DNA of 33,220 bases from a virus (lineage: Duplodnaviria; Heunggongvirae; Uroviricota; Caudoviricetes). This document shows positions 1 to 26,182 of this stretch, in pieces; positions within the stretch are counted from its first letter, which is position 1, and each line of letters starts with the position of its first letter. Where the stretch lies: positions 1-33,220 of IMG/VR virus record IMGVR_UViG_2874920711_000012. One strand, given 5' to 3'. The notes below the pieces were generated by a model, which worked only from the letters and a program-made list of their open reading frames with translations, was not told where the DNA came from and made no database searches. The translations under genes were made by a program, and so were the position numbers.

Positions 1-41
1 ATGGACTGGCAAAAGTGTAGCGGTATTAAGCGCAGCTATTT
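1..41 (+). mobile_element. IS630 terminal segment (partial copy, body lies upstream of the window)
   Basis: Positions 1-41 are the exact inverted complement of the terminus of the complete IS630 at 23547-23589, followed by TA (42-43). Encodes the same transposase C-terminal peptide MDWQKCSGIKRSYL. Confidence 0.7.
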
Positions 42-43
42 AG

Positions 44-279
44 ATAAATGCAGAGATGATTTGGAAAGTATCTTTTCTAAAAATCTTGTTTTGACTATCG
101 ATGTTCTTTTTAACAGAAAGAGTGGGGCAACCTTAAGACATAAATTAGCACATGGTAATTTATATACTAATGCTTGTTACGATGAAACAACGACATATGC
201 ATGCATCCTGATTTTCTTTCTGTGTGCTTATCCTCTCCTACCATATTTTGATACTGTTTTTGAACAGGGCTCTGTTTGA
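44..279 (+). pseudogene. 3' fragment of an AT-rich cargo gene truncated by IS630; contains an Rx4H (HEPN-like) motif RHKLAH
   Basis: Open frame continues from the IS630 end to a stop at 279; low GC versus the phage backbone; lies just upstream of cos at the P2 old/tin-type locus. Only the C-terminal ~78 codons remain in the window. Confidence 0.45.
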
Positions 280-430
280 TAACGTATACGTTGAGGCATA
301 AAACCTATGCATACTTAGCTGCATCAATTTGCACGAGGTATTTCAGTATGCATTTTCTGCGTAATAGTAGGGATTGCTTGGTTTGGTAGTTGTAATTCAA
401 CTGCATTCAAACCGACCCATGAAGCGGGCG

Positions 431-449
431 GGCGAGGCGGGGAAAGCAC
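431..449. other. cos: P2-type cos site (19-nt cohesive end sequence GGCGAGGCGGGGAAAGCAC)
   Basis: Exact match to the recalled P2 cohesive-end sequence, located immediately beyond the 3' end of Q as in P2. Confidence 0.75.
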
Positions 450-618
450 TGCGCGCTGGCGGTGGTGCTGATTTTATTTTTTCAGCGTCTCAGCGCGTCG
501 TGACGGCGCTTAGTCTGCCCGTTGGGGTGTTGGTGTGTCTGCGGGCTGTTTTGTGCTGTGGTGAGCGTGTGAGGGCGTGATGACGGGATGTAAAAAAGCC
601 GCCCGCAGGCGGCGATGT

Positions 619-1653
619 TCAGCCGTTGTCAGTGTCCAGTGAGTAGTTTTTAAAGCGGATGACCTCCTGACCGAGCCAGCCGTTTATCTCGCGGATCCTG
701 TCCTGTAACGGGATAAGCTCATTGCGGACAAAGACCTTTGCCACTTTCTCAATATCACCCAGCGACCCGACGTTCTCCGGCTTGCCGCCCATCAACTGAA
801 AGGGGATGCGGTGCGCGTCAAGCAGGTCAGCGGCGCTGGCTTTTTTGATATTAAAAAAATCGTCCTTCGTTGCCACTTCACTGAGCGGGATAATTTTAAT
901 GCCGTCGGCTTTTCCCTGTGGGGCATAGAGAAACAGGTTTTTAAAGTTGTTGCGGCCTTTCGACTTCACCATGTTTTCGCGAAGCGTTTCGATATCGTTG
1001 CGATCCTGCACGGCATCAGTGACGTACATGATATATCCGGCATGAGCGCCGTTTTCGTAATACTTGCGGCGGAACAGCGTGGCCGACTCATTCAGCCAGG
1101 CAGAATTAAGGGCGCTGAGATATTCCGGCAGACCGTACAGCTCCTGATTAATATCCGGCTCCAGCAGGTGAAACACGGATCCGGGCGCGAAGGCTGTCGG
1201 CTCGTTAAAGGACGGCACCCACCAGTAAACATCCTCCTCCACGCCACGGCGGGTATATTTTGCCGGTGAGGTTTCCAGTCTGATGACCTTACCGGTGGTG
1301 CTGTAACGCTTTTCCAGAAACGCATTACCGAACACCAGAAAATCCAGCACAAAGCGGCTGAAATCCTGCTGGGACAGCCACGGGTGCGGGATAAACGTTG
1401 AAGCCAGAATATTACGTTTGACGTAAATCGGTGAGCTGTGATGCACGGCAGCACGCAGGCTTTTTGCCAGACCGGTAAAGCTGATTGGTGGCTCATACCA
1501 TCTGCTGTTACTGATGCATTCGACGTAATCCAGAATGTCACGGCGGTCGAGTACCGGCACCGGCTCACCAAAGGTGAATACCTCCATTTTCGGGGCGCTG
1601 GCGGTCATTGTTTTTGCCGCAGGTTGCGGTGTTTTCCCTTTTTTCTTGCTCAT
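619..1653 (-). CDS. Q: Portal protein gpQ
   Basis: 344-aa ORF whose sequence and position (next to cos, downstream of P) match the P2 portal protein as recalled. Confidence 0.9.
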   Translation of the reverse strand: MSKKKGKTPQPAAKTMTASAPKMEVFTFGEPVPVLDRRDILDYVECISNSRWYEPPISFTGLAKSLRAAVHHSSPIYVKRNILASTFIPHPWLSQQDFSRFVLDFLVFGNAFLEKRYSTTGKVIRLETSPAKYTRRGVEEDVYWWVPSFNEPTAFAPGSVFHLLEPDINQELYGLPEYLSALNSAWLNESATLFRRKYYENGAHAGYIMYVTDAVQDRNDIETLRENMVKSKGRNNFKNLFLYAPQGKADGIKIIPLSEVATKDDFFNIKKASAADLLDAHRIPFQLMGGKPENVGSLGDIEKVAKVFVRNELIPLQDRIREINGWLGQEVIRFKNYSLDTDNG

Positions 1654-1714: not shown

Positions 1715-3424
1715 TTAACAGGGCGTGCATGGTCGCCCAGGCGAGGTCGGCGTGGCTGGCTTCCTCGCTGCGGCTGGCCTCATAGGTGGCCTGCGTCCGC
1801 TGCTGGTCATGGTCTTGCGGATAGCCATGAACGAGCTGGTGATGTCGGTGGCGCTGACGTCATATTCCAGACAGCCACGGCGGATAACGTCTTTTGCCTT
1901 GAGCACCATTGCGGTTTTCATTTCCGGCGTGTAGCGGATGTCGCGCGCGGCGGGATAGAACGAGCGCACAAGCTGGAACACGCCGACACCGAGGCCGGTG
2001 GCATCAATACCGATGTATTCGACGTTGTATTTTTCGGTGAGTTTGCGGATGGATTCCGCCTGGGTGGCAAAGTCCATACCTTTCCACTGGTGACGCTCAA
2101 GTATTCTGAATTTGCCACCGGCCACCACCGGCGGTGCCAGTACCACGCATCCGGCGCTGTCGCCACGGTGTGACGGGTCGTAACCAATCCATACCGGTCG
2201 GGAGCCGAACGGATTGGCGGCAAACGGCGCATAGTCTTCCCATTCTTCCAGCGTGTCGACCATGCAGCGTTGCAGCTCCTCGAACGGGAATACCGATGCC
2301 TTGTCGTCAACAAATTCACACATGAACAGGTTTTTAAAATCGTCGGCGCTGTTTTCGCGTTTAAGCGGCTCAATGTCGAACAGCGTGCAGCCACCTTTCA
2401 GGGCGTCCTCAATGGTGACAATCTGCCGCCACTGGCCGTCCGCACAGAGAAGCCCACCGGCAAGGGCGTTATGACTGATGTCGATTTCCACGCGTTCGGC
2501 GGCGCTGGCGCGTCCCCGGTTAAACAGTTCACCCGACCAGAACGGGTAGGCGTCGTGCGCCAGCGTGGACGGGGTGGAGAAATAGGTCGAGCGCAGGTGA
2601 CTCTGTGAGGCCATACCTGATGCCATCTTACGCAGTACCTGAAAATTCGGGATCCAGAACATCTCGTCGACGTACAGGTCGCCGTTATGGCTCTGCGCGG
2701 TGTTGGAGTTGGTGCCGAGAAAAATCAGTTTTGCGCCGTTATTGCCCAGGACAATCGGGTCACCGGTCAGGTCAACGTCAACCAGCCGGGCAAAGGCGAT
2801 GATGTATTCGCGGAACACATACGCCTGTGTTTTACTGGCCGACAGAAAAATCTGGTTATGACCGGTTTTCAGGGCGCGCAGCAGCGCCTCGCGGGAAAAA
2901 TAAAACGTCGCGCCAATCTGGCGGGATTTCAGGATATCGCGGATGCGGTGCTCAAGCCCGGCGCGATACCAGTGCAACTGATATTCGAAAGACTGCTCAA
3001 AGAAAATCTGCTCCAGCTTTTCGATGGCTTCGTCACTGAAAAAATTCTTTTTCGGTTTGCGACGCCCGCCTTTGTTGCGGTTAGCGACGTTCGGATTAAG
3101 GTCTGCCTCGTTGCCGGTCTGACTGTAGCGGTTGACCCGCGCCAGTCGTTCAATCTGGCGTCCCAGCAGGTCAATTTCCTTGAAGTCACCGCCGGTTTTC
3201 TGCGGTTTGATAATGAGCTGGGTCAGCCGCGCTTCCAGACTCATTTCGACACGGCTGATGGGGGCAACGCTGTCCCAGCCGTCGCGCTGTTTCCAGCTCT
3301 GCACCGTCGGGCGTTTCATCTGCAACATGGCGGCAATCTGCGGCACGGAAAACCCCTGCCAGTACAGCAGCGCCGCCTGACGACGCGGGTCGTGCAAAAG
3401 AGTGGTGTCTGTGGTGATGGTCAT
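1715..3424 (-). CDS. P: Terminase large (ATPase) subunit gpP, with an apparent C-terminal frameshift
   Basis: N-terminus MTITTDTTLLHDPRRQAALLYWQGF matches P2 gpP as recalled. The last ~25 codons of the ORF look out of frame, so the true stop is probably near 1656. Confidence 0.85.
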   Translation of the reverse strand: MTITTDTTLLHDPRRQAALLYWQGFSVPQIAAMLQMKRPTVQSWKQRDGWDSVAPISRVEMSLEARLTQLIIKPQKTGGDFKEIDLLGRQIERLARVNRYSQTGNEADLNPNVANRNKGGRRKPKKNFFSDEAIEKLEQIFFEQSFEYQLHWYRAGLEHRIRDILKSRQIGATFYFSREALLRALKTGHNQIFLSASKTQAYVFREYIIAFARLVDVDLTGDPIVLGNNGAKLIFLGTNSNTAQSHNGDLYVDEMFWIPNFQVLRKMASGMASQSHLRSTYFSTPSTLAHDAYPFWSGELFNRGRASAAERVEIDISHNALAGGLLCADGQWRQIVTIEDALKGGCTLFDIEPLKRENSADDFKNLFMCEFVDDKASVFPFEELQRCMVDTLEEWEDYAPFAANPFGSRPVWIGYDPSHRGDSAGCVVLAPPVVAGGKFRILERHQWKGMDFATQAESIRKLTEKYNVEYIGIDATGLGVGVFQLVRSFYPAARDIRYTPEMKTAMVLKAKDVIRRGCLEYDVSATDITSSFMAIRKTMTSSGRRPPMRPAAARKPATPTSPGRPCTPC

Positions 3425-4525: not shown

Positions 4526-5950
4526 TAATGCCGATCAGTTAAGGATCAGTTGACCGATCCAGTGGCTGTGTAAGAATCCGGAAACGCTCACTTGTTTCCG
4601 GATTTTTTTATGCACATTGGACAGGCTCTTGATCTGGTATCCCGTTACGATTCTCTGCGTAACCCACTGACTTCTCTGGGGATTACCTCGACCCCGAACT
4701 CATCTCTCGTTGCCTTGCCGAATCAGGTACTGTAACGCTACGCAAGCGCCGTCTTCCCCTCGAAATGATGGTCTGGTGTATTGTTGGCATGGCGCTTGAG
4801 CGTAAAGAACCTCTTCACCAGATTGTGAATCGCCTGGACATCATGCTGCCGGGCAATCGCCCCTTCGTTGCCCCCAGTGCCGTTATTCAGGCCCGCCAGC
4901 GCCTGGGAAGTGAGGCTGTCCGCCGCGTGTTCACGAAAACAGCGCAGCTCTGGCATAACGCCACGCCGCATCCGCACTGGTGCGGCCTGACCCTGCTGGC
5001 CATCGATGGTGTGTTCTGGCGCACACCGGATACACCAGAGAACGATGCAGCCTTCCCCCGCCAGACACATGCCGGGAACCCGGCGCTCTACCCGCAGGTC
5101 AAAATGGTCTGCCAGATGGAACTGACCAGCCATCTGCTGACGGCTGCAGCCTTCGGCACGATGAAGAACAGCGAAAATGAGCTTGCTGAGCAACTTATAG
5201 AACAAACCGGCGATAACACTCTGACGTTAATGGATAAAGGTTATTACTCACTGGGACTGTTAAATGCCTGGAGCCTGGCGGGAGAACACCGCCACTGGAT
5301 GATACCTCTCAGAAAGGGAGCGCAATATGAAGAGTTCAGAAAACTGGGTAAAGGCGATCATCTGGTGAAGCTGAAAACCAGCCCGCAGGCACGAAAAAAG
5401 TGGCCGGGACTGGGAAATGAAGTGACAGCCCGCCTGCTGACCGTGACGCGCAAAGGAAAAGTCTGCCATCTGCTGACGTCGATGACGGACGCCATGCGCT
5501 TCCCCGGAGGAGAAATGGCGGATCTGTACAGTCATCGCTGGGAAATCGAACTGGGATACAGGGAGATAAAACAGACGATGCAACTGAGCAGGCTGACGCT
5601 GAGAAGTAAAAAGCCGGAGCTTGTGGAGCAAGAGCTGTGGGGTGTCTTACTGGCTTATAATCTGGTGAGATATCAGATGATTAAAATGGCGGAACATCTG
5701 AAAGGTTACTGGCCGAATCAACTGAGTTTCTCAGAATCATGCGGAATGGTGATGAGAATGCTGATGACATTGCAGGGCGCTTCACCGGGACGTATACCGG
5801 AGCTGATGCGCGATCTTGCAAGTATGGGACAACTTGTGAAATTACCGACGAGAAGGGAAAGGGCCTTCCCGAGAGTGGTAAAGGAGAGGCCCTGGAAATA
5901 CCCCACAGCCCCGAAAAAGAGCCAGTCAGTTGCTTAACTGACTGGCATTA
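4526..5950 (+). mobile_element. IS4 (1425 bp) with 13-bp target-site duplication GCGCCAGGAAACC
   Basis: Terminal inverted repeats TAATGCCGATCAGTTAAGG at 4526 and its complement ending 5950; identical 13-bp direct repeats at 4513-4525 and 5951-5963. Confidence 0.9.
4610..5937 (+). CDS. IS4 transposase (apparent N-terminal frameshift near 4672)
   Basis: ATG at 4610 ([20 protein letters not shown]) shifts frame in a G-run; the remainder (ORF 4765-5937) matches IS4 transposase as recalled. Confidence 0.85.
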
Positions 5951-16865: not shown

Positions 16866-17231
16866 ATGATTGATGTCTTAGGGCCGGAGAAACGCAGACG
16901 GCGTACCACACAGGAAAAGATCGCAATTGTTCAGCAGAGCTTTGAACCGGGGATGACGGTCTCCCTCGTTGCCCGGCAACATGGTGTAGCAGCCAGCCAG
17001 TTATTTCTCTGGCGTAAGCAATACCAGGAAGGAAGTCTTACTGCTGTGGCCGCCGGAGAACAGGTTGTTCCTGCCTCTGAACTTGCTGCCGCCATGAAGC
17101 AGATTAAAGAACTCCAGCGCCTGCTCGGCAAGAAAACGATGGAAAATGAACTCCTCAAAGAAGCCGTTGAATATGGACGGGCAAAAAAGTGGATAGCGCA
17201 CGCGCCCTTATTGCCCGGGGATGGGGAGTAA
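16866..17231 (+). CDS. insC: IS2 InsC (orfA)
   Basis: [56 protein letters not shown]… IS3-family orfA. Confidence 0.85.
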
Positions 17232-18094
17232 GCTTAGTCAGCCGTTGTCTCCGGGTGTCGCGTGCGCAGTTGCACGTCATTCTCAGACGAACCGATGACT
17301 GGATGGATGGCCGCCGCAGTCGTCACACTGATGATACGGATGTGCTTCTCCGTATACACCATGTTATCGGAGAGCTGCCCACGTATGGTTATCGTCGGGT
17401 ATGGGCGCTGCTTCGCAGACAGGCAGAACTTGATGGTATGCCTGCGAACAATGCCAAACGTGTTTACCGGATCATGCGCCAGAATGCGCTGTTGCTTGAG
17501 CGAAAACCTGCTGTACCGCCATCGAAACGGGCACATACAGGCAGAGTGGCCGTGAAAGAAAGCAATCAGCGATGGTGCTCTGACGGGTTCGAGTTCTGCT
17601 GTGATAACGGAGAGAGACTGCGTGTCACGTTCGCGCTGGACTGCTGTGATCGTGAGGCACTGCACTGGGCGGTGACTACCGGCGGCTTCAACAGTGAAAC
17701 AGTACAGGACGTCATGCTGGGAGCGGTGGAACGCCGCTTCGGCAACGATCTTCCGTCGTCTCCAGTGGAGTGGCTGACGGATAATGGTTCATGCTACCGG
17801 GCTAATGAAACACGCCAGTTCGCCCGGATGTTGGGACTTGAACCGAAGAACACGGCGGTGCGGAGTCCGGAGAGTAACGGAATAGCAGAGAGCTTCGTGA
17901 AAACGATAAAGCGTGACTACATCAGTATCATGCCCAAACCAGACGGGTTAACGGCAGCAAAGAACCTTGCAGAGGCGTTCGAGCATTATAACGAATGGCA
18001 TCCGCATAGTGCGCTGGGTTATCGCTCGCCACGGGAATATCTGCGGCAGCGGGCTTGTAATGGGTTAAGTGATAACAGATGTCTGGAAATATAG
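17189..18094 (+). CDS. insD: IS2 InsD (orfB, DDE transposase domain)
   Basis: 301-aa ORF overlapping insC in another frame, typical IS3-family orfA/orfB arrangement. Confidence 0.85.
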
Positions 18095-18180
18095 GGGCAA
18101 ATCCACCTGCCTTTTTTCGTTTCTGCGCAAGTTAGCTCTGTTATTATAATCCTTACTCACACTGTAAGGACATAGTTCAA

Positions 18181-18309
18181 ATGACTGAATGGCTTAATGC
18201 ACATTTTGGTGCAGACGCAGCTACCTATCTTAGCTTATTAGTCGGCGTACTGGCACTGTTTGGTATTGGGGCGGTGTTACATATAGAATCAGACAGCAAA
18301 ACAACATAA
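18181..18309 (+). CDS. Small TM peptide ORF (42 aa); possibly the N-terminal part of one gene with 18339-18797
   Basis: ATG at 18181 with AAGGA upstream and a TATAAT at 18145-18150; hydrophobic stretch LSLLVGVLALFGIGAVL. The downstream ORF frame is open back to 18232, so a single base difference in 18232-18306 would fuse the two. Confidence 0.4.
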   Translation: MTEWLNAHFGADAATYLSLLVGVLALFGIGAVLHIESDSKTT

Positions 18310-18338
18310 AACAGAAGGCAAAGAAAACCGAGGGTGAT

Positions 18339-18797
18339 GTGAACCAGGCCGGGCGGGATATTAATCAGACCACCAACGTTTACCACACATCCAATGAATC
18401 TACTGAGGACCCTGTAAAAAAAAAGCAAGATGAACATGATCTGAAGATAATCGACCAGATCCTTGAATTGCTGCCTTATGAGGATACTACTCAATGGGTT
18501 GAGCAGAGCTACCTGAGCGGTATACGGCAAGATGTTTGCTTAAACATTGAAAAAGCTGAAAAATTTAGCGGTGAAAAGTATCGGTTATTCAATACTGAAG
18601 TGAATGGTGCGAAAGACGCTTTTTTGGACGCTATGACCGCATACGTAGATAGTACGCTACCATTTATGAGTGTTGATTACCCGAACAGAAAGCCAGTGAT
18701 GCTAAGCCTTCCCCATGACTGGAAGAGTAAGAGTGTTGAATCGGAGGCAAACTTCCGCTTTCATCAGCAAAATGTGCGTGAAACATCGGGGGGATGA
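18339..18797 (+). CDS. Hypothetical protein (152 aa as called)
   Basis: AT-rich ORF with no recognised motif; followed by a terminator hairpin that is split by the IS10-like element. Confidence 0.5.
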   Translation: MNQAGRDINQTTNVYHTSNESTEDPVKKKQDEHDLKIIDQILELLPYEDTTQWVEQSYLSGIRQDVCLNIEKAEKFSGEKYRLFNTEVNGAKDAFLDAMTAYVDSTLPFMSVDYPNRKPVMLSLPHDWKSKSVESEANFRFHQQNVRETSGG

Positions 18798-18955
18798 TTG
18801 CGCGCTATGAGGATTTTGTCAGGACATTTAAGGCTCATGGATTCATAAGCGATAAACTGTAAAGGCGCAGTGGGTCAGCGAACACCGCAACGACAGAACC
18901 GCGTAAGCGGTAAAATCAGCTTGTTAACTGGCGAGTTTATAGCCGTCCCTCCGGG

Positions 18956-20255
18956 CTGAGGGATCCCCACAAAATTACTGCTAATAAACCAGCACCATAT
19001 TTCGGTAGGTTCTGGACAGATGGTTTAGAACTGTGCTCAGTACTGTTCGTCTTAAAATAAGTGGCGAGTGTCGAAGAACATTCTTCGCTAACGTCAGATA
19101 TGAGATAACCCGCCGGGATTTAATGCTGTTAGCCTGATATTTCAGGTGTAACCCTTTATTTTCAGCGTGATAACCGAGTAACCACATTACGATAGTGCTC
19201 AACGTTGCCAGCAGACTCAGAACCAGAATTCTTCCTGTTGAACGACTTTTGCTGGCCCGAAGACCAAATCCGAAGCGCCCGTTCTTTTCATCACGAAAGT
19301 TTTGCTCTATCTGCATTCGCCGACTGTATAACTTGATGATTTCTCGCGCTCTGAAGTCATTTGTACTGCTGAAGATCAACCAGGCTTCTTTTGCTGATTT
19401 GCTCTGTTCTTTGTCTGTTTTGTTTAAACCACTCTGACCTTTCGAACGTTTCTTTTTTCGCCCTTTTGCCGATTTCTTATAGGTGTAAAAATGCCCCGGA
19501 TGCTTTTTTTCCTTTCTTTAACCAGCCTTCCAGCCCCCATATATTCCGGTGTTTTACATTCAGGGCTATCCGACACTTTTAACCATCTTTCAGGCGCGTT
19601 ATCGAGGCAATACTGAACGTTATTTCTGATCCGACCAATAAAATCCCAGCCCAGAGAAGTAATATGGTGAAACCATGCGCTCTGAAATCCAGCATCCGTG
19701 ACAATAATAACCCTGGCATCGGGGGGCAGGGATTGAGCAAGGGAATCAAGGAAATCATGTTGTATCAATGGATTATTTTGTTTTTCAGAAGGAACAACCT
19801 TACTCAATAACGGAATGGAACGCCCGTCACACAGAAGGCTGGCACGAAGAACATGATGCTCCTGGGAGGGATAGCCACTCCAGTCTACGGCTATTACACA
19901 TAAAGATAACTGCCGTGTCAGCATTGAAGTGATATTCCTGAAAATCATTGGAATATCGCGATGGAGCGCCTCATTACCCATGAGGCGATCAATACGTTTG
20001 CTCTTATTCTTAACTTGTGCATTACCCGGGAAAAAACGTCCGATACTGGTCAGCGTCAGAGATGCTCCGTTGATTAACGCCACTGTGGCATCCATCAGGG
20101 CATTTTGTCGGTACTGATGAAATGGTGCTAAGGCATCCCGGAAGAAATTCTGACATACTTTATGAACAGGCATAGCAGTGATCTCATTGAATTGTTGGCA
20201 CAAATCAGTAGATCACATAATGCTATGTCTGTCTCGTTTTCTGGGAATTCCTCAG
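18956..20255 (-). mobile_element. IS10-like element (IS4 family, ~1300 bp) with 9-bp target-site duplication CCCTCCGGG
   Basis: Imperfect terminal inverted repeats CTGAGGGATCCCCACAAAA (18956-) and complement of CTGAGGAATTCCCAGAAAA (-20255); direct repeats at 18947-18955 and 20256-20264; inserted in a terminator hairpin. Confidence 0.75.
18981..20203 (-). CDS. IS10-like DDE transposase, split into two ORFs (apparent frameshift near 19380-19425)
   Basis: N-part has KRIDRLMGN, IAVDWSG and IVTDAGF motifs; C-part has the YREK signature (YSRRMQIEQNFRDEK); clear colinearity with IS10 transposase as recalled. Confidence 0.75.
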
Positions 20256-20341
20256 CCCTCCGGGGCGGCTTTTTTATGACTATAATCGACAGAATCACCT
20301 GAACGTCCAGGTGGGTTTCCCTGACAGGACGTCAAGGAATG

Positions 20342-20376
20342 TTCGCTTTGTGCCAGGAGCGGACGTTGCCAGCATT
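20342..20376. repeat. Copy B of the ~35-nt conserved motif seen at 16338-16372
   Basis: See copy A; lies in the intergenic region ~150 bp upstream of the 20526 ORF. Confidence 0.5.
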
Positions 20377-20525
20377 GAGTTTTCAGTTTTCAAAGGTATA
20401 TCTTTAGATTTAGTTCACTTAGAATGAGCGTGTTAAAGTTTTCGGTTATGTGAGTATATTGAACATAACAAATAAACAATAATTTTTGTATTCCATTTAG
20501 GATATAAAAAAGAGGGATTTGAGTT

Positions 20526-21311
20526 ATGTACGATTATAGTTTTTTACTTACTCCATCTACAGGATTTGTTAAAGGATTATGTGGAGTTTGGTCGAATGAT
20601 TTCTCTATAAATGATGATTCTGACTCTGATTTAGGGCAAACAGATATTCATTTACTTTCATCTCCTCATTTGAATATCATATCCGACCCAAATGAATTGG
20701 CTTCCAAGTTAAAAGGTTTGTTGATGCTCATGAACGGCGCACTTAGCGTTCTTTATGGTTTTGAAAGATATCAATCTTTTGGTCCTCTTTCTATTTCTGG
20801 AAGTGAAGGCATTAATTACTCGGAAATATGCGGCTTTAAATCAATGGATGTAACTCAGGTAAACCCCTTTAATTTCCATGACATACAGCAACCACACCCT
20901 CGCGCTGATAATTTTTCACGATTAATTAATTTATCATCTAAACATGAATCCTTACGTGTTGTTTTAGGTATGTGTGCCTTAGGTTATGATTGGGTTAATC
21001 TTTATCGTTTGTGGGAAACAATTAGAGAATATGTATATGATAAATATGTGAAAGGTATACTAAATTTCCCCGACGCTTATAAAGGCAAGAAATATCAGAG
21101 AGATAAAGTAATTAGCATGGCTTTTAATATTGATGAAAAGGAAATCAGCAGATTCACGGGCACTGCTAATAGCTTTGAACTGTTAGGGTATCTTGCGAGA
21201 CATGGAAAGGGAAGTTCCGGAGGGATATTAAAAAATCCGATGTCAAGAGTTGACGCAAGCATTTTCGTACACAAAGCAACTTACAAATATTGTAAGTTAT
21301 TTTTGATGTAA
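20526..21311 (+). CDS. Hypothetical protein (261 aa), AT-rich cargo gene
   Basis: ATG with AGAGGG Shine-Dalgarno 8 nt upstream; low GC; no recognised motif; convergent with the HNH-domain gene. Confidence 0.6.
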   Translation: MYDYSFLLTPSTGFVKGLCGVWSNDFSINDDSDSDLGQTDIHLLSSPHLNIISDPNELASKLKGLLMLMNGALSVLYGFERYQSFGPLSISGSEGINYSEICGFKSMDVTQVNPFNFHDIQQPHPRADNFSRLINLSSKHESLRVVLGMCALGYDWVNLYRLWETIREYVYDKYVKGILNFPDAYKGKKYQRDKVISMAFNIDEKEISRFTGTANSFELLGYLARHGKGSSGGILKNPMSRVDASIFVHKATYKYCKLFLM

Positions 21312-21413
21312 GTAAAAAGTTGAAGCTATAATACTCAAAGTATCGAAAACTACGTTCGTCGTGCACTCGAAAACAATATGCTTATTGTGTCTGCACTAAT
21401 TACTCAAGGTCCG

Positions 21414-21450
21414 AGAAAAATGGCGAAGCTCATCTTTTTCAGGCTTCGCC
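21414..21450 (-). terminator. Intrinsic terminator for the minus-strand HNH-domain gene
   Basis: Hairpin GGCGAAGC…GCTTCGCC (21422-21450) followed on the minus strand by a U-run (plus-strand A-run 21416-21420), just past the gene's stop at 21473. Confidence 0.55.
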
Positions 21451-21472
21451 AACTTGAGTTATTGGTTAAAAT

Positions 21473-22826
<1,354 letters not shown>

Positions 22827-22898
22827 TGGAGCACCTGTGTTGTTCTGAGGTGAGCATATCACCTCTGTTCAGGTGGCCAAATTCAGTGTGCCACTTCA

Positions 22899-23475
22899 AC
22901 TCGACGATCAACGATAGCGGAGACTCAGGTGCAATCTCGGAGCGAATCGCCGTAAGAGAGAGTCGGAGCTCCTTCAAAGAATCCGAGACTCGTGCTGGAT
23001 CCTCTTGAGCATATGGCAGATAAAGAGAACTCTTGTCTTCCAATAAATGGATCAACCGCAGAGCAATTTTCTCGTCTGGGCGATGCGATAGAAATTGAAA
23101 CATTAGCCTCTTTCCTCCCTCCAAGCACTCCTTCATTAGTGATTCGTGGTCACGTTTCCATTTTCGCAAATACTCGGCGGGGTAGCCCATACCGCCATTC
23201 TTATCAACTAAATCAGCACAAGCTCCGCACAACCATATAGCATTTTTTATGCTCTTCCGCTCTGTTTCTGACTGAGACATGTCATAGCGCGGTCCGCCAG
23301 GGCTCGCCGCGCAGATATGCGCCGCCTCACCCGTCTTGATAGAAAGATTTTCCGCCAATTGATCCGGGCCGATTGTTACCCTATGACAAGAGGGATTGCT
23401 ACAAATATATGTAGCGCGCTCTGCTACCTTACCTACAACGCTTGGAGGAAAGTTGTGCCTATTTGTCTTGGTCAT
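22899..23475 (-). pseudogene. 5' part of an HNH-nuclease-domain gene (~250 aa when rejoined), interrupted by IS911
   Basis: N-terminal region has CSNPSC, AAHICAASPGGPRY and NAIWLCGACADLV, an HNH-like arrangement; the ORF-track C-terminus beyond 22899 is IS911-derived. Confidence 0.6.
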
Positions 23476-23499
23476 AAAAGTTATGCTTCTTTGTTTTTT

Positions 23500-24597
23500 T
23501 CATCTATGTGGGGAGAATAAAATCATACTTTTTATATCTGATCCTAAATAGCTGCGCTTAATACCGCTACACTTTTGCCAGTCCATGTTTGCCTCCGGGA
23601 ATGGGCTGACGGTTTCCATAAAATGGCGAACTTTTTTCAACAGTTGCCACATTGAGCGGCACTGATGATTACGCGTTATTGTGTCGTGAAGTGCCTGCCA
23701 TAGCCGTTCAACATGATTCACCCATGGCGAGTAAACCGGCTGATAAATGACCCTGAACTTCGGGTTCTCCTTCAGCCAGCTCTGTGTTTCCCGGCTTTTG
23801 TGGATAATGTAGTTGTCCACGATCAGCGTGATGGTTTTCGCCCGACGGTATGTCGCTTTAAGCCGCTTCAGCAGGCTGATGAACAGCGCCGAACTTTTGC
23901 TGTTGCCGCCCACATAGCTGACTTTACCTGTCCCGCTGTGCAGCGCTCCGGCCAGATAATATTTTTCATTCTGTCCCGGCGTGACCACCCGTTTTTGCTG
24001 TCCGCGCAGTTGCCAGTCCGCACCGATTTTGGGATGAAGATGGATATCCACTTCATCTTCATAAAAGACCGGATGCTCTGCGCTGCATTCGTCCAGTGCT
24101 TTATGGATTGCTGCCATCTTTTCATCTTTATGCGGGTCACGGATACGCAGAGTTGGCGCAGCCCTTCGCCACACAATCCCCGCAGACGGCAACCAGCGGC
24201 GAACGGTTCCGGCATTTAACTGGCAACCGGTTATCTCATTGATTTTTATTGCCAGCAGTTCTGTACTCCAGCGTGAACGCTGGTAGACAAAGTCGCCGGG
24301 AGAATGTTTTACCAGCTCACGTAACAGTGTGCAGATATGCTCAAACGGCCAGCGACGGGCACGCCCGGCAGGTAATGATTTCAGTCCCTCAACACCCGAC
24401 TGCGTGAACCAGTTAATCCAGCGTCCAACAGAGGAACGGGCGCAGCAGAGCGTTCTGGCAACGTCGCTGACACGGTCGCCCCGGTGCAGCATCAGCATGG
24501 CAGTCAGTCTGCGGGCATAATTTTTATCGTGTGTTTTATGGATGGCTTTCTGCATCAGGCGTCGTTCGTCACGGGAAATTGGTGCTATGATCGGCAT
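23500..24597 (-). CDS. IS630 transposase (ORF as called runs past the IS end)
   Basis: MPIIAPISRDERRLMQKAIHKTHDKNYARRLTAMLMLHRGDRVSDVARTLCCARSSVGRW… matches IS630 transposase as recalled; the last ~15 codons lie outside the element. Confidence 0.85.
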   Translation of the reverse strand: MPIIAPISRDERRLMQKAIHKTHDKNYARRLTAMLMLHRGDRVSDVARTLCCARSSVGRWINWFTQSGVEGLKSLPAGRARRWPFEHICTLLRELVKHSPGDFVYQRSRWSTELLAIKINEITGCQLNAGTVRRWLPSAGIVWRRAAPTLRIRDPHKDEKMAAIHKALDECSAEHPVFYEDEVDIHLHPKIGADWQLRGQQKRVVTPGQNEKYYLAGALHSGTGKVSYVGGNSKSSALFISLLKRLKATYRRAKTITLIVDNYIIHKSRETQSWLKENPKFRVIYQPVYSPWVNHVERLWQALHDTITRNHQCRSMWQLLKKVRHFMETVSPFPEANMDWQKCSGIKRSYLGSDIKSMILFSPHR

Positions 24598-24698
24598 TGC
24601 TCAGTCCGGTTGGTGATTTGTTTTGATTTGGCGATTGATCAGATCGCACAATCCGGGCTAAGTTCCCTCAAAATGATCTACTATTCCGCGCAGCTATT
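23547..24698 (-). mobile_element. IS630 (1152 bp) inserted at a CTAG target with TA duplication
   Basis: Terminal inverted repeats AATAGCTGCGC… at both ends; TA at 23545-23546 and 24699-24700, flanked by C and G. Confidence 0.85.
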
Positions 24699-24993
24699 TA
24701 GGTCTGACCAGCAACCTATTGATCAAAAAACCAAGATATTAGCTAAAAAAATCAGCATACTTGAGACCAAGCTCAATGTCCGCTCCTCGCTCAAAGCAGA
24801 CTGTCAGATTTGATAGCATTTGGGCTATGTAAATTGTCAGGCGGAAAATGAGTGAGTACAAATCAGGACAGGCGGGCGAATTGCCCGCATTTTCTTTATC
24901 TGTTGTTTCATCCCCTGACCAGCCAGGTCAAATAGCGTCTCATGCTCTGCACAACAGAAAATAGTTGCACCCATTAACCACGGAGTTAAACGG

Positions 24994-26182
24994 ATGAGTG
25001 ACTATCATCACGGCGTGCAGGTGCTGGAGATTAACGACGGCACCCGCGTCATTTCCACCGTATCCACGGCCATTGTCGGCATGGTCTGCACGGCCAGCGA
25101 TGCAGATGCGGAAACCTTCCCCTCAATAAACCGGTGCTGATTACCAATGTGCAGAGCGCAATTGCAAAGGCCGGTAAAAAAGGCACGCTGGCGGCGTCGT
25201 TACAGGCCATCGCTGACCAGTCAAAACCGGTCACCGTTGTTGTGCGCGTGGAAGACGGCACCGGCGACGACGAAGAAACGAAGCTCGCGCAGACCGTTTC
25301 CAATATCATCGGCACCACCGACGAAAACGGTCAGTACACCGGACTGAAAGCCCTGCTGGCGGCGGAGTCGGTAACCGGTGTTAAACCGCGCATTCTCGGT
25401 GTGCCGGGACTGGATACCAAAGAGGTGGCTGTTGCACTGGCATCAGTCTGTCAGAAGCTGCGCGCTTTCGGGTATATCAGCGCATGGGGCTGTAAAACCA
25501 TTTCCGAGGTGAAAGCCTACCGCCAGAATTTCAGCCAGCGTGAGCTGATGGTCATCTGGCCGGATTTCCTCGCATGGGATACGGTCACCAGTACCACCTC
25601 CACCGCGTATGCCACCGCCCGTGCGCTGGGGCTGCGCGCTAAAATCGACCAGGAGCAGGGCTGGCATAAAACGCTGTCCAACGTCGGGGTGAACGGTGTT
25701 ACCGGCATCAGCGCGTCCGTATTCTGGGATTTGCAGGAGTCCGGCACCGATGCTGACCTGCTTAACGAGTCAGGCGTCACAACGCTGATTCGCCGTGACG
25801 GTTTCCGCTTCTGGGTAACCGTACCTGCTCTGATGACCCGCTGTTCCTCTTTGAAAACTACACCCGCACCGCGCAGGTGCTGGCCGACACGATGGCTGAG
25901 GCGCACATGTGGGCGGTGGACAAGCCCATCACCGCAACGCTGATTCGCGACATCGTTGACGGCATCAATGCCAAATTCCGTGAGCTGAAAACAAACGGCT
26001 ATATCGTGGATGCGACCTGCTGGTTCAGCGAAGAATCCAACGATGCGGAAACCCTCAAGGCCGGAAAACTGTATATCGACTACGACTATACACCGGTGCC
26101 TCCTCTCGAAAACCTGACCCTGCGCCAGCGTATTACCGATAAATACCAGGCAAATCTGGTCACCTCGGTTAACAGCAATTAA
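24994..26182 (+). pseudogene. FI: Tail sheath protein gpFI with two apparent frameshifts (near 25125 and 25820)
   Basis: [43 protein letters not shown] then a stop; adding one C to the C-run restores …[11 protein letters not shown]…; a second break near GFRFW. Confidence 0.85.

Follow-up and report, generated by a model that had tools for sequence, protein, structure and literature searches.

The closest described relative of the locus analysed here is system 13 of the P2 hotspot, which was cloned with its native promoter from E. coli S88 as pFR103 under the label 'Putative HEPN' (Rousset et al. 2022, PMC9122126), and which is the same gene as PDC-S39 of PADLOC. In the survey of Rousset et al. 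this system is called 'DUF4209' and carries in Table S5B the number 193, apparently a count (PMC9122126); the N-terminal sequence given there is that of the intact homologue that we have translated. The trial of the S88 allele covered eight phages, and the allele is found in Table S2B (additional systems tested), not in Table S2A (validated systems): of the eight extra P2-hotspot systems that were challenged with the eight phages three were active, none of them being this HEPN gene (PMC9122126). The DUF4209 domain, which defines the C6orf70 family, has been classified within the HEPN superfamily with conservation of its Rx4-6H motif, and bacterial proteins containing it are fused to TPR and found in operons related to restriction-modification (Anantharaman et al. 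2013, PMC3710099). Characterised HEPN proteins such as Csm6, RnlA/LsoA, the HEPN toxins and Cas13 are metal-independent endoribonucleases; their active site consists of the Rx4-6H motifs and is usually shared across a dimer (PMC3710099).

The DNA considered here, hereafter the window, is the whole stretch of 33,220 nucleotides that was analysed. It is identical to the chromosome of Shigella dysenteriae CP026824.1 over the 10,279 bases compared and ends in yegQ/trhP, so that it spans the whole remaining right part of a P2-like prophage. Its beginning, which contains a remnant of the same gene as system 13, is organised as follows.

1-40, plus strand: right terminal 40 bp of IS630, with limits set from a full IS630 copy (L003)
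41-42, no strand: duplicated TA of the target site, in a CTAG that belongs to the intact gene
43-279, plus strand: 3' remnant (codons 533-610 and TGA) of a 610-aa DUF7380/DUF4209 (PDC-S39) gene, identified by nucleotide identity to intact genes
136-153, plus strand: RHKLAH, a HEPN-type R-x4-H motif, corresponding to R564 and H569 of the intact protein, with an invariant G next to it
1-279, plus strand: chimeric ORF of 92 aa, made of 14 codons from the IS630 end and the 78-codon remnant, from the ORF list and exact-sequence look-ups
431-449, no strand: P2-type cos, 19-nt cohesive end GGCGAGGCGGGGAAAGCAC, identical to the annotated cosL of NC_001895
592-613, minus strand: counterpart of the P2 rho-independent terminator tQ, downstream of the portal gene, from alignment with P2 160-181
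619-1653, minus strand: portal gene gpQ, right border of the hotspot, from the ORF, PF04860 (Phage_portal) and annotated homologues

The sequence-only reading of this DNA had placed the gene fragment at a cos-proximal locus of the old/tin type, and this placement agrees with the identity of cosL, with the P2 map and with the position of the gene between gpA and cos/gpQ in intact relatives. The 190 nt that follow the window cos align to P2 at about 91%, and the coordinates of the tQ counterpart were mapped from the P2 alignment, in which positions 160-181 are annotated as terminator tQ. In P2 the interval between gpA and cos contains orf91, tin and old, so that old and tin, between gpA/orf91 and cos, occupy the same hotspot; however, they are transcribed the opposite way, namely away from cos, whereas the HEPN gene reads toward cos, and their products (Old being an OLD-family ATPase/nuclease) are unrelated to the HEPN protein. 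Indeed, Pfam and PADLOC scans of the intact protein revealed no homology to old or tin, only DUF7380/DUF4209 and PDC-S39. It had also been proposed that related prophages carry other defence genes at this position, in agreement with the variable hotspot between gpA and cos/gpQ (PMC9122126); its cargo also includes partition systems, cytolethal distending toxin and the like, which do not serve defence (Rousset et al. 2022, PMC9122126). The window retains cos and gpQ, and gpA lies immediately upstream of the cargo gene in intact relatives; in the source prophage of the window gpA itself is deleted. RefSeq and the annotation of phage vB_EcoM-569R9 list a further ORF at 374-580 on the plus strand (6350-6547 in L001), of 65-68 aa, as 'hypothetical protein'; since it spans the cos at 431-449 and would be split in linear virion DNA, it has probably been called as a gene in error.

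The left border of the remnant is formed by an IS630 of the Shigella sonnei type, a member of the Tc1/mariner-like IS630 family, the terminal 40 bp of which are identical to those of the window copy. A 45-nt query (window 1-45) gives a 100% match to IS630 ends in E. coli, comparison with the full copy (L003) sets the last base of the element at window 40, the stop codon TAG of its transposase lies at 18-20 and its terminal inverted repeat closes with ...GCGCAGCTATT; upstream of the window, the source chromosome (L004/L005) carries a complete IS630. At the junction intact homologues have ...CAGCTTCTAGATAAA..., in the alignment TTCTAGATAAA, and reading ...CAGCTTCTAGATAAATGC... in the intact homologues against ...GCAGCTATT-TA-GATAAATGC... 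in the window one sees that IS630 joined in CTAG, its known target, and that TA is the duplicated dinucleotide. The terminal inverted repeat and the TA duplication in CTAG that characterise IS630 are thus both present at the window start, and the DDE_3 transposase gene is likewise common to the known element and the copy here. The sequence-only reading had seen a gene cut at the end of an IS630 followed by TA, which the perfect match to IS630 ends and the junction in CTAG of the intact homologues bear out; the 41 bp that it assigned to the element are really 40 from the comparison with the full copy.

The remnant itself comprises 78 codons and TGA, covers only the C-terminal half of the HEPN domain and is, at the nucleotide level, 97-98% identical to the intact genes that phage vB_EcoM-569R9 and E. 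coli prophages carry. It matches phrog_5183 (E 5.6e-46), PDC-S39 (E 2.6e-10, positions 522-583 only of the HMM) and DUF4209 (E 4.4e-4), the latter with 20.7 bits against a Pfam gathering threshold of 22.3 bits. The other domain of the family, DUF7380 (PF24098), does not occur in the window, the deletion having removed codons 1-532 up to the IS630 junction at codon 532; the window copy of the PDC-S39 gene is thus partial and disrupted. Its GC content of 33.8% is close to that of the full intact gene (33.0%), in comparison with 55.6% for the neighbouring portal and terminase genes. Regarding what had been read from the letters, the fragment is AT-rich as described (34% GC), runs for 78 codons toward cos and contains RHKLAH at window 136-153, and its frame is coding in homologues, where the 610-aa gene is found intact; it starts at 43, however, since the frame from 44 that had been given produces stops.

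Intact versions of the gene are common. Megablast of window 1-620 retrieved about 53 complete E. coli genomes plus phage vB_EcoM-569R9, in which bases 33-620 are matched at 97-98% identity and the annotation of the matched feature names a DUF7380 or DUF4209 domain protein. The intact gene of E. coli FDAARGOS_1261 and phage vB_EcoM-569R9 has 1833 bp, encodes 610 aa, stands as a single gene between the replication endonuclease gene gpA and cos/gpQ and is read in the direction of cos; the intact prophage of FDAARGOS_1261 occupies the same yegR-side chromosomal site. The comparison with IS-free P2-like prophages that had been proposed for this locus consequently finds the intact gene at the same position between gpA and cos/gpQ. 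The same holds for S88-type alleles, which have 97-98% DNA identity to the window fragment and lie in the same position from gpA to cos/gpQ; unlike system 13 of S88, the window keeps only codons 533-610, the rest of the gene and gpA being deleted with IS630 in their place. The intact protein has DUF7380 at the N-terminus (residues 4-184, E 4.9e-39), a helical middle part and DUF4209 (PF13910) at the C-terminus (residues 524-590, 19.5 bits and hence below the cutoff of 22.3); PADLOC assigns residues 7-598 to PDC-S39 (E 1.5e-84) and PHROGs gives phrog_5183, and a scan of the protein against NCBIfam returned no family. The DUF7380-DUF4209 family is large, with about 3,400 clusters at 50% identity: exhaustive profile search found 3358 cluster representatives at E<=1e-3, 614 of them at E<=1e-30, almost all with 600-640 aa and matching end to end. 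Two of its members, with 27% (P0024) and 55% (P0015) identity, lie between gpA and the portal gene in P2/186-like prophages.

Is the C-terminal domain truly HEPN? The presence of RHKLAH, residues 32-37 of the fragment, is by itself weak evidence, because an R-x4-H arises in 7% of shuffles of the 78-aa fragment, and its weight comes from conservation. Across 69 full-length relatives with 20-37% identity, all 69 have DUF7380 and 51 have DUF4209 at E<=1e-3 (best 9.4e-13), and only nine columns are invariant in these diverse homologues. They include R564, H569 and G570 of the RHKLAHG motif as well as L495, P497, E500 and R504, which form one helix (LxPxxE...R) earlier in the same domain; the R, the H and the following G are also invariant in 20 close homologues. 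The full-length structural model (pLDDT 78.5) found in Foldseek searches against the PDB only weak TPR-like solenoid matches (E>1e-3, TM about 0.1-0.2), which would be in line with a predicted helical repeat region between the two terminal domains. Since this search was uninformative on the HEPN question, the C-terminal domain was modelled apart from the full-length protein, and it shows a fold match to HEPN RNases. Hence the two hallmarks of the superfamily, a conserved R-x4-6-H motif and an all-alpha helical-bundle fold, are found together. That RHKLAH is a chance occurrence, and the gene encodes some other helical accessory protein of phages, would conform to the shuffling frequency, to the intact protein's DUF4209 score below the Pfam threshold, to the TPR-like repeats that are all the full-length model finds and to profile searches with full-length and C-terminal alignments against PDB sequences, which returned nothing meaningful and no sequence relative; we regard it nonetheless as very unlikely. 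The family-level DUF4209 matches, the invariant motif, the fold match to HEPN RNases and the published assignment of DUF4209 (PMC3710099) support that the Rx4H motif belongs to a real HEPN-type domain. On this point the original reading of RHKLAH has held up well: the family search that it had advised for the rejoined protein, made instead with the intact homologue and its relatives, leads to DUF4209 in 51 of the 69 relatives.

This assignment needs to be qualified with respect to known HEPN proteins. DUF4209 proteins of the C6orf70/ERMARD type have, as here, a C-terminal helical domain with a conserved Rx4H, but the intact protein's own score lies just under the Pfam threshold and its N-terminal DUF7380 is specific to bacterial and phage proteins. 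There is no detectable sequence similarity of the intact protein to Csm6, RnlA/LsoA, the C-terminal HEPN of AbiA or MNT-HEPN toxins, and it is devoid of the CARF, RT and NRD/DBD domains of characterised HEPN RNases. Unlike toxin-antitoxin HEPNs, moreover, it is encoded by a single gene, with no cognate antitoxin or partner gene at the loci examined.

In genomic terms, the remnant creates a puzzle: How did the gene lose its first 532 codons? A simple insertion of IS630, which would leave the 5' part intact just upstream and the gene rejoinable across the element, was implied by the sequence-only reading and is what the window alone suggests; both IS630 junctions are canonical, with TA in CTAG. 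Yet the sequence on the far side of the element is not that of the gene. To the left of IS630, CP026824.1 has the last 45 codons of a P2-type integrase followed by attL, yegR, yegS and the gat operon. The same left flank (int 3' end, attL, yegR) occurs in a second S. dysenteriae genome, and in neither of the two does the stretch from yegR to IS630 contain gpA, B, cox or C. The left junction lies in a CTAG of int, where the intact sequence ...GTGTGGCCTAGTATCC... has changed to ...GTGTGACC-TA-IS630 (in L005, ...CC-TA-IS630). The CTAG sites thus joined, at codon 293 of the 337 of int and at codon 532 of the 610 of the HEPN gene, are about 7.43 kb apart in the intact prophage. The element is therefore ordinary in itself but, unlike the usual case, a single copy bridges two distant CTAG sites and so marks a deletion. 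One IS630 therefore stands where the intact prophage has C, cox, B, the small early genes and gpA, together with the 5' portion of int and 87% of the HEPN gene. Simple insertion thus becomes practically inconceivable, with about 7.4 kb gone, and because the far side of IS630 abuts int codon 293, the gene cannot be rejoined here: the upstream sequence, across which rejoining had been proposed, is int from codon 293 on instead of codons 1-532.

The most likely explanation for this deletion is that two IS630 copies inserted in the same orientation and that recombination between them would then have removed about 7.4 kb. A single insertion followed by an IS-mediated adjacent deletion may give the same product, and it is just conceivable that the missing 5' part was relocated elsewhere in the S. 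dysenteriae chromosome instead of being lost.

What remains in the window retains the Rx4H helix and the last long helix, and is missing the helix with the invariant E500 and R504, the remaining HEPN domain and everything N-terminal. No HEPN activity would be expected from the 78-residue remnant, which has lost the N-terminal half of the HEPN fold with all that precedes it; the earlier view that the gene is disrupted and probably inactive in this strain is therefore sound, codons 1-532 being missing and less than half a HEPN domain being left. The fusion with the insertion element deserves separate mention, for the right end of IS630 (L003 1592-1603; window 1-3) provides GGAGG, a 5-nt spacer and ATG at the beginning of an outward-reading frame that is open to the tip of the element, so that an in-frame insertion makes a translatable fusion ORF with downstream DNA. 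The 92-aa chimera thus formed is on record in four contigs and annotated as a hypothetical protein of S. dysenteriae. It could be argued that this chimera is produced in the cell and has taken on a role of its own, given that IS630 supplies the GGAGG, spacer and ATG in frame with the remnant and that the ORF is kept in several S. dysenteriae assemblies. However, less than half a HEPN domain is present in it, without the invariant E500/R504 helix, and its conservation in S. dysenteriae is explained by clonal descent; an expressed and functional chimera is thus extremely improbable. Taken together, window 43-279 is very probably the dead relic of a single-gene cargo ('moron') of P2-like prophages.

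What, then, would the intact protein do? By analogy with characterised HEPNs it would most likely be an endoribonuclease that needs no metal, the Rx4H motifs of two subunits in a dimer together making up the active site, while its N-terminal and helical sensor part would either hold the HEPN domain inactive or activate it. RNA cleavage on infection could then produce phage exclusion of the abortive-infection type. Such a single-protein sensor-effector fits the arrangement of DUF7380 and helical repeats before HEPN in a single-gene locus; the AT-rich composition, which is that of a horizontally acquired gene, and the recurrent cos-proximal hotspot of P2/186 phages fit it as well. The literature searched contains no demonstration of RNase or defence activity for a protein of the DUF7380-DUF4209 family, no papers were found on DUF7380 or on ERMARD together with HEPN, and PDC-S39 is mentioned only in lists of predicted systems. 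Defence is accordingly a candidate function, and for the intact gene only. The family might also be one of HEPN fold with a role other than anti-phage defence, for instance in processing or regulation of prophage RNA or in host fitness, the hotspot merely tolerating cargo. Such a role would be in line with the lack of reported protection by the S88 allele against eight phages, with the partition systems and cytolethal distending toxin that share the hotspot (PMC9122126) and with the fact that C6orf70/ERMARD, a eukaryotic DUF4209 member, is not an immune protein (PMC3710099). Nevertheless, PADLOC lists the family as a defence candidate, the gene turns up at this hotspot again in P2/186-like phages that are only distantly related, bacterial DUF4209 members are found in the abovementioned operons related to restriction-modification (PMC3710099) and a negative result from eight phages in one host is weak evidence; we thus consider a non-defence role possible but rather unlikely. 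That the intact family represents a genuine single-protein abortive-infection RNase, the trigger of which was missing from the eight-phage panel, is a tentative reading, plausible and still somewhat short of probable. If true, it would provide a prokaryotic counterpart of the uncharacterised HEPN domain of eukaryotic ERMARD/C6orf70, and the S. dysenteriae copy in the window would still be only a dead relic.

The locus matters little in itself, as a pseudogene in an IS-riddled, decaying P2-like prophage, and the family and the hotspot have already been catalogued. Nothing here is new in kind: a known candidate gene in a known hotspot was destroyed by a known insertion sequence. Its value is modest and lies in offering a clean case of a prophage that IS630 has stripped of immunity, replication and cargo genes in the context of Shigella genome reduction, the genome of S. 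dysenteriae being known for IS expansion; the family, for its part, combines large size and an invariant HEPN signature with a function that is only a candidate one. A 2026 survey of P2/P4 hotspots has reported that defence-like pseudogenes are rare, about 2% in P2 (PMC13586616), and the remnant of the window would be one such rare case.

Decay is not restricted to the hotspot, as can be seen in the remaining prophage.

1715-3424, minus strand: terminase large subunit gpP, from the gene call and Pfam, shortened at its 3' end
4765-5937, plus strand: IS4-family transposase gene (Nterm_IS4 and DDE_Tnp_1), inserted at the 5' end of the major capsid gene gpN
17189-18094 (plus strand), 19424-20203 (minus strand) and 21473-22336 (minus strand): transposase ORFs, two of the IS3 family with rve and one with DDE_Tnp_1
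23547-24698, inverted with respect to the copy at the window start: second complete IS630, with TA at 23545-23546 and 24699-24700

The gpP gene has a 1-nt deletion near window 1790, a C being missing in comparison with the P gene of an intact E. coli prophage, and the resulting frameshift ends the ORF 62 nt before the start of gpQ, which the intact version overlaps; this is another sign of prophage decay. Downstream of the IS4-family insertion, the small terminase gene gpM is truncated (64-97 aa call), and the three transposase ORFs at 17189-22336 are clustered within 5 kb in the tail region. The AT-rich DNA that received the second IS630 lies upstream of the tail sheath gene (25134-25943), and the joined flanks of this copy read CTAG (...GATCC-TA-IS-TA-GGTCTG...). 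An inversion between the inverted IS630 copies (1-40 and 23547-24698) was considered as the origin of the junction at the window start and discarded: the first copy has on either side the same order as the intact prophage, namely yegR-attL-int 3' end on the left and gene 3' end-cos-Q on the right, and the matching TA/CTAG flanks of the second copy look like simple insertion.

In the interval with IS elements that separates the tail-fibre assembly and sheath genes, two AT-rich ORFs, at 20526-21311 (plus strand) and 22807-23475 (minus strand), have no Pfam match; the prophage may have a second variable locus here, of which they would be disrupted cargo. From about 22900 to 23546 the DNA shares 99.8% identity with a hypothetical gene of E. 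coli EC_J_9 (L010), which is about 1.2 kb from a type I restriction-modification operon. Finally, on the other side of the prophage, upstream of the window, gatY and gatZ are split into two and three ORFs in CP026824.1 (L004 531-2670; two F_bP_aldolase and three GatZ_KbaZ-like matches), which agrees with a galactitol operon that has decayed to pseudogenes in Shigella dysenteriae.
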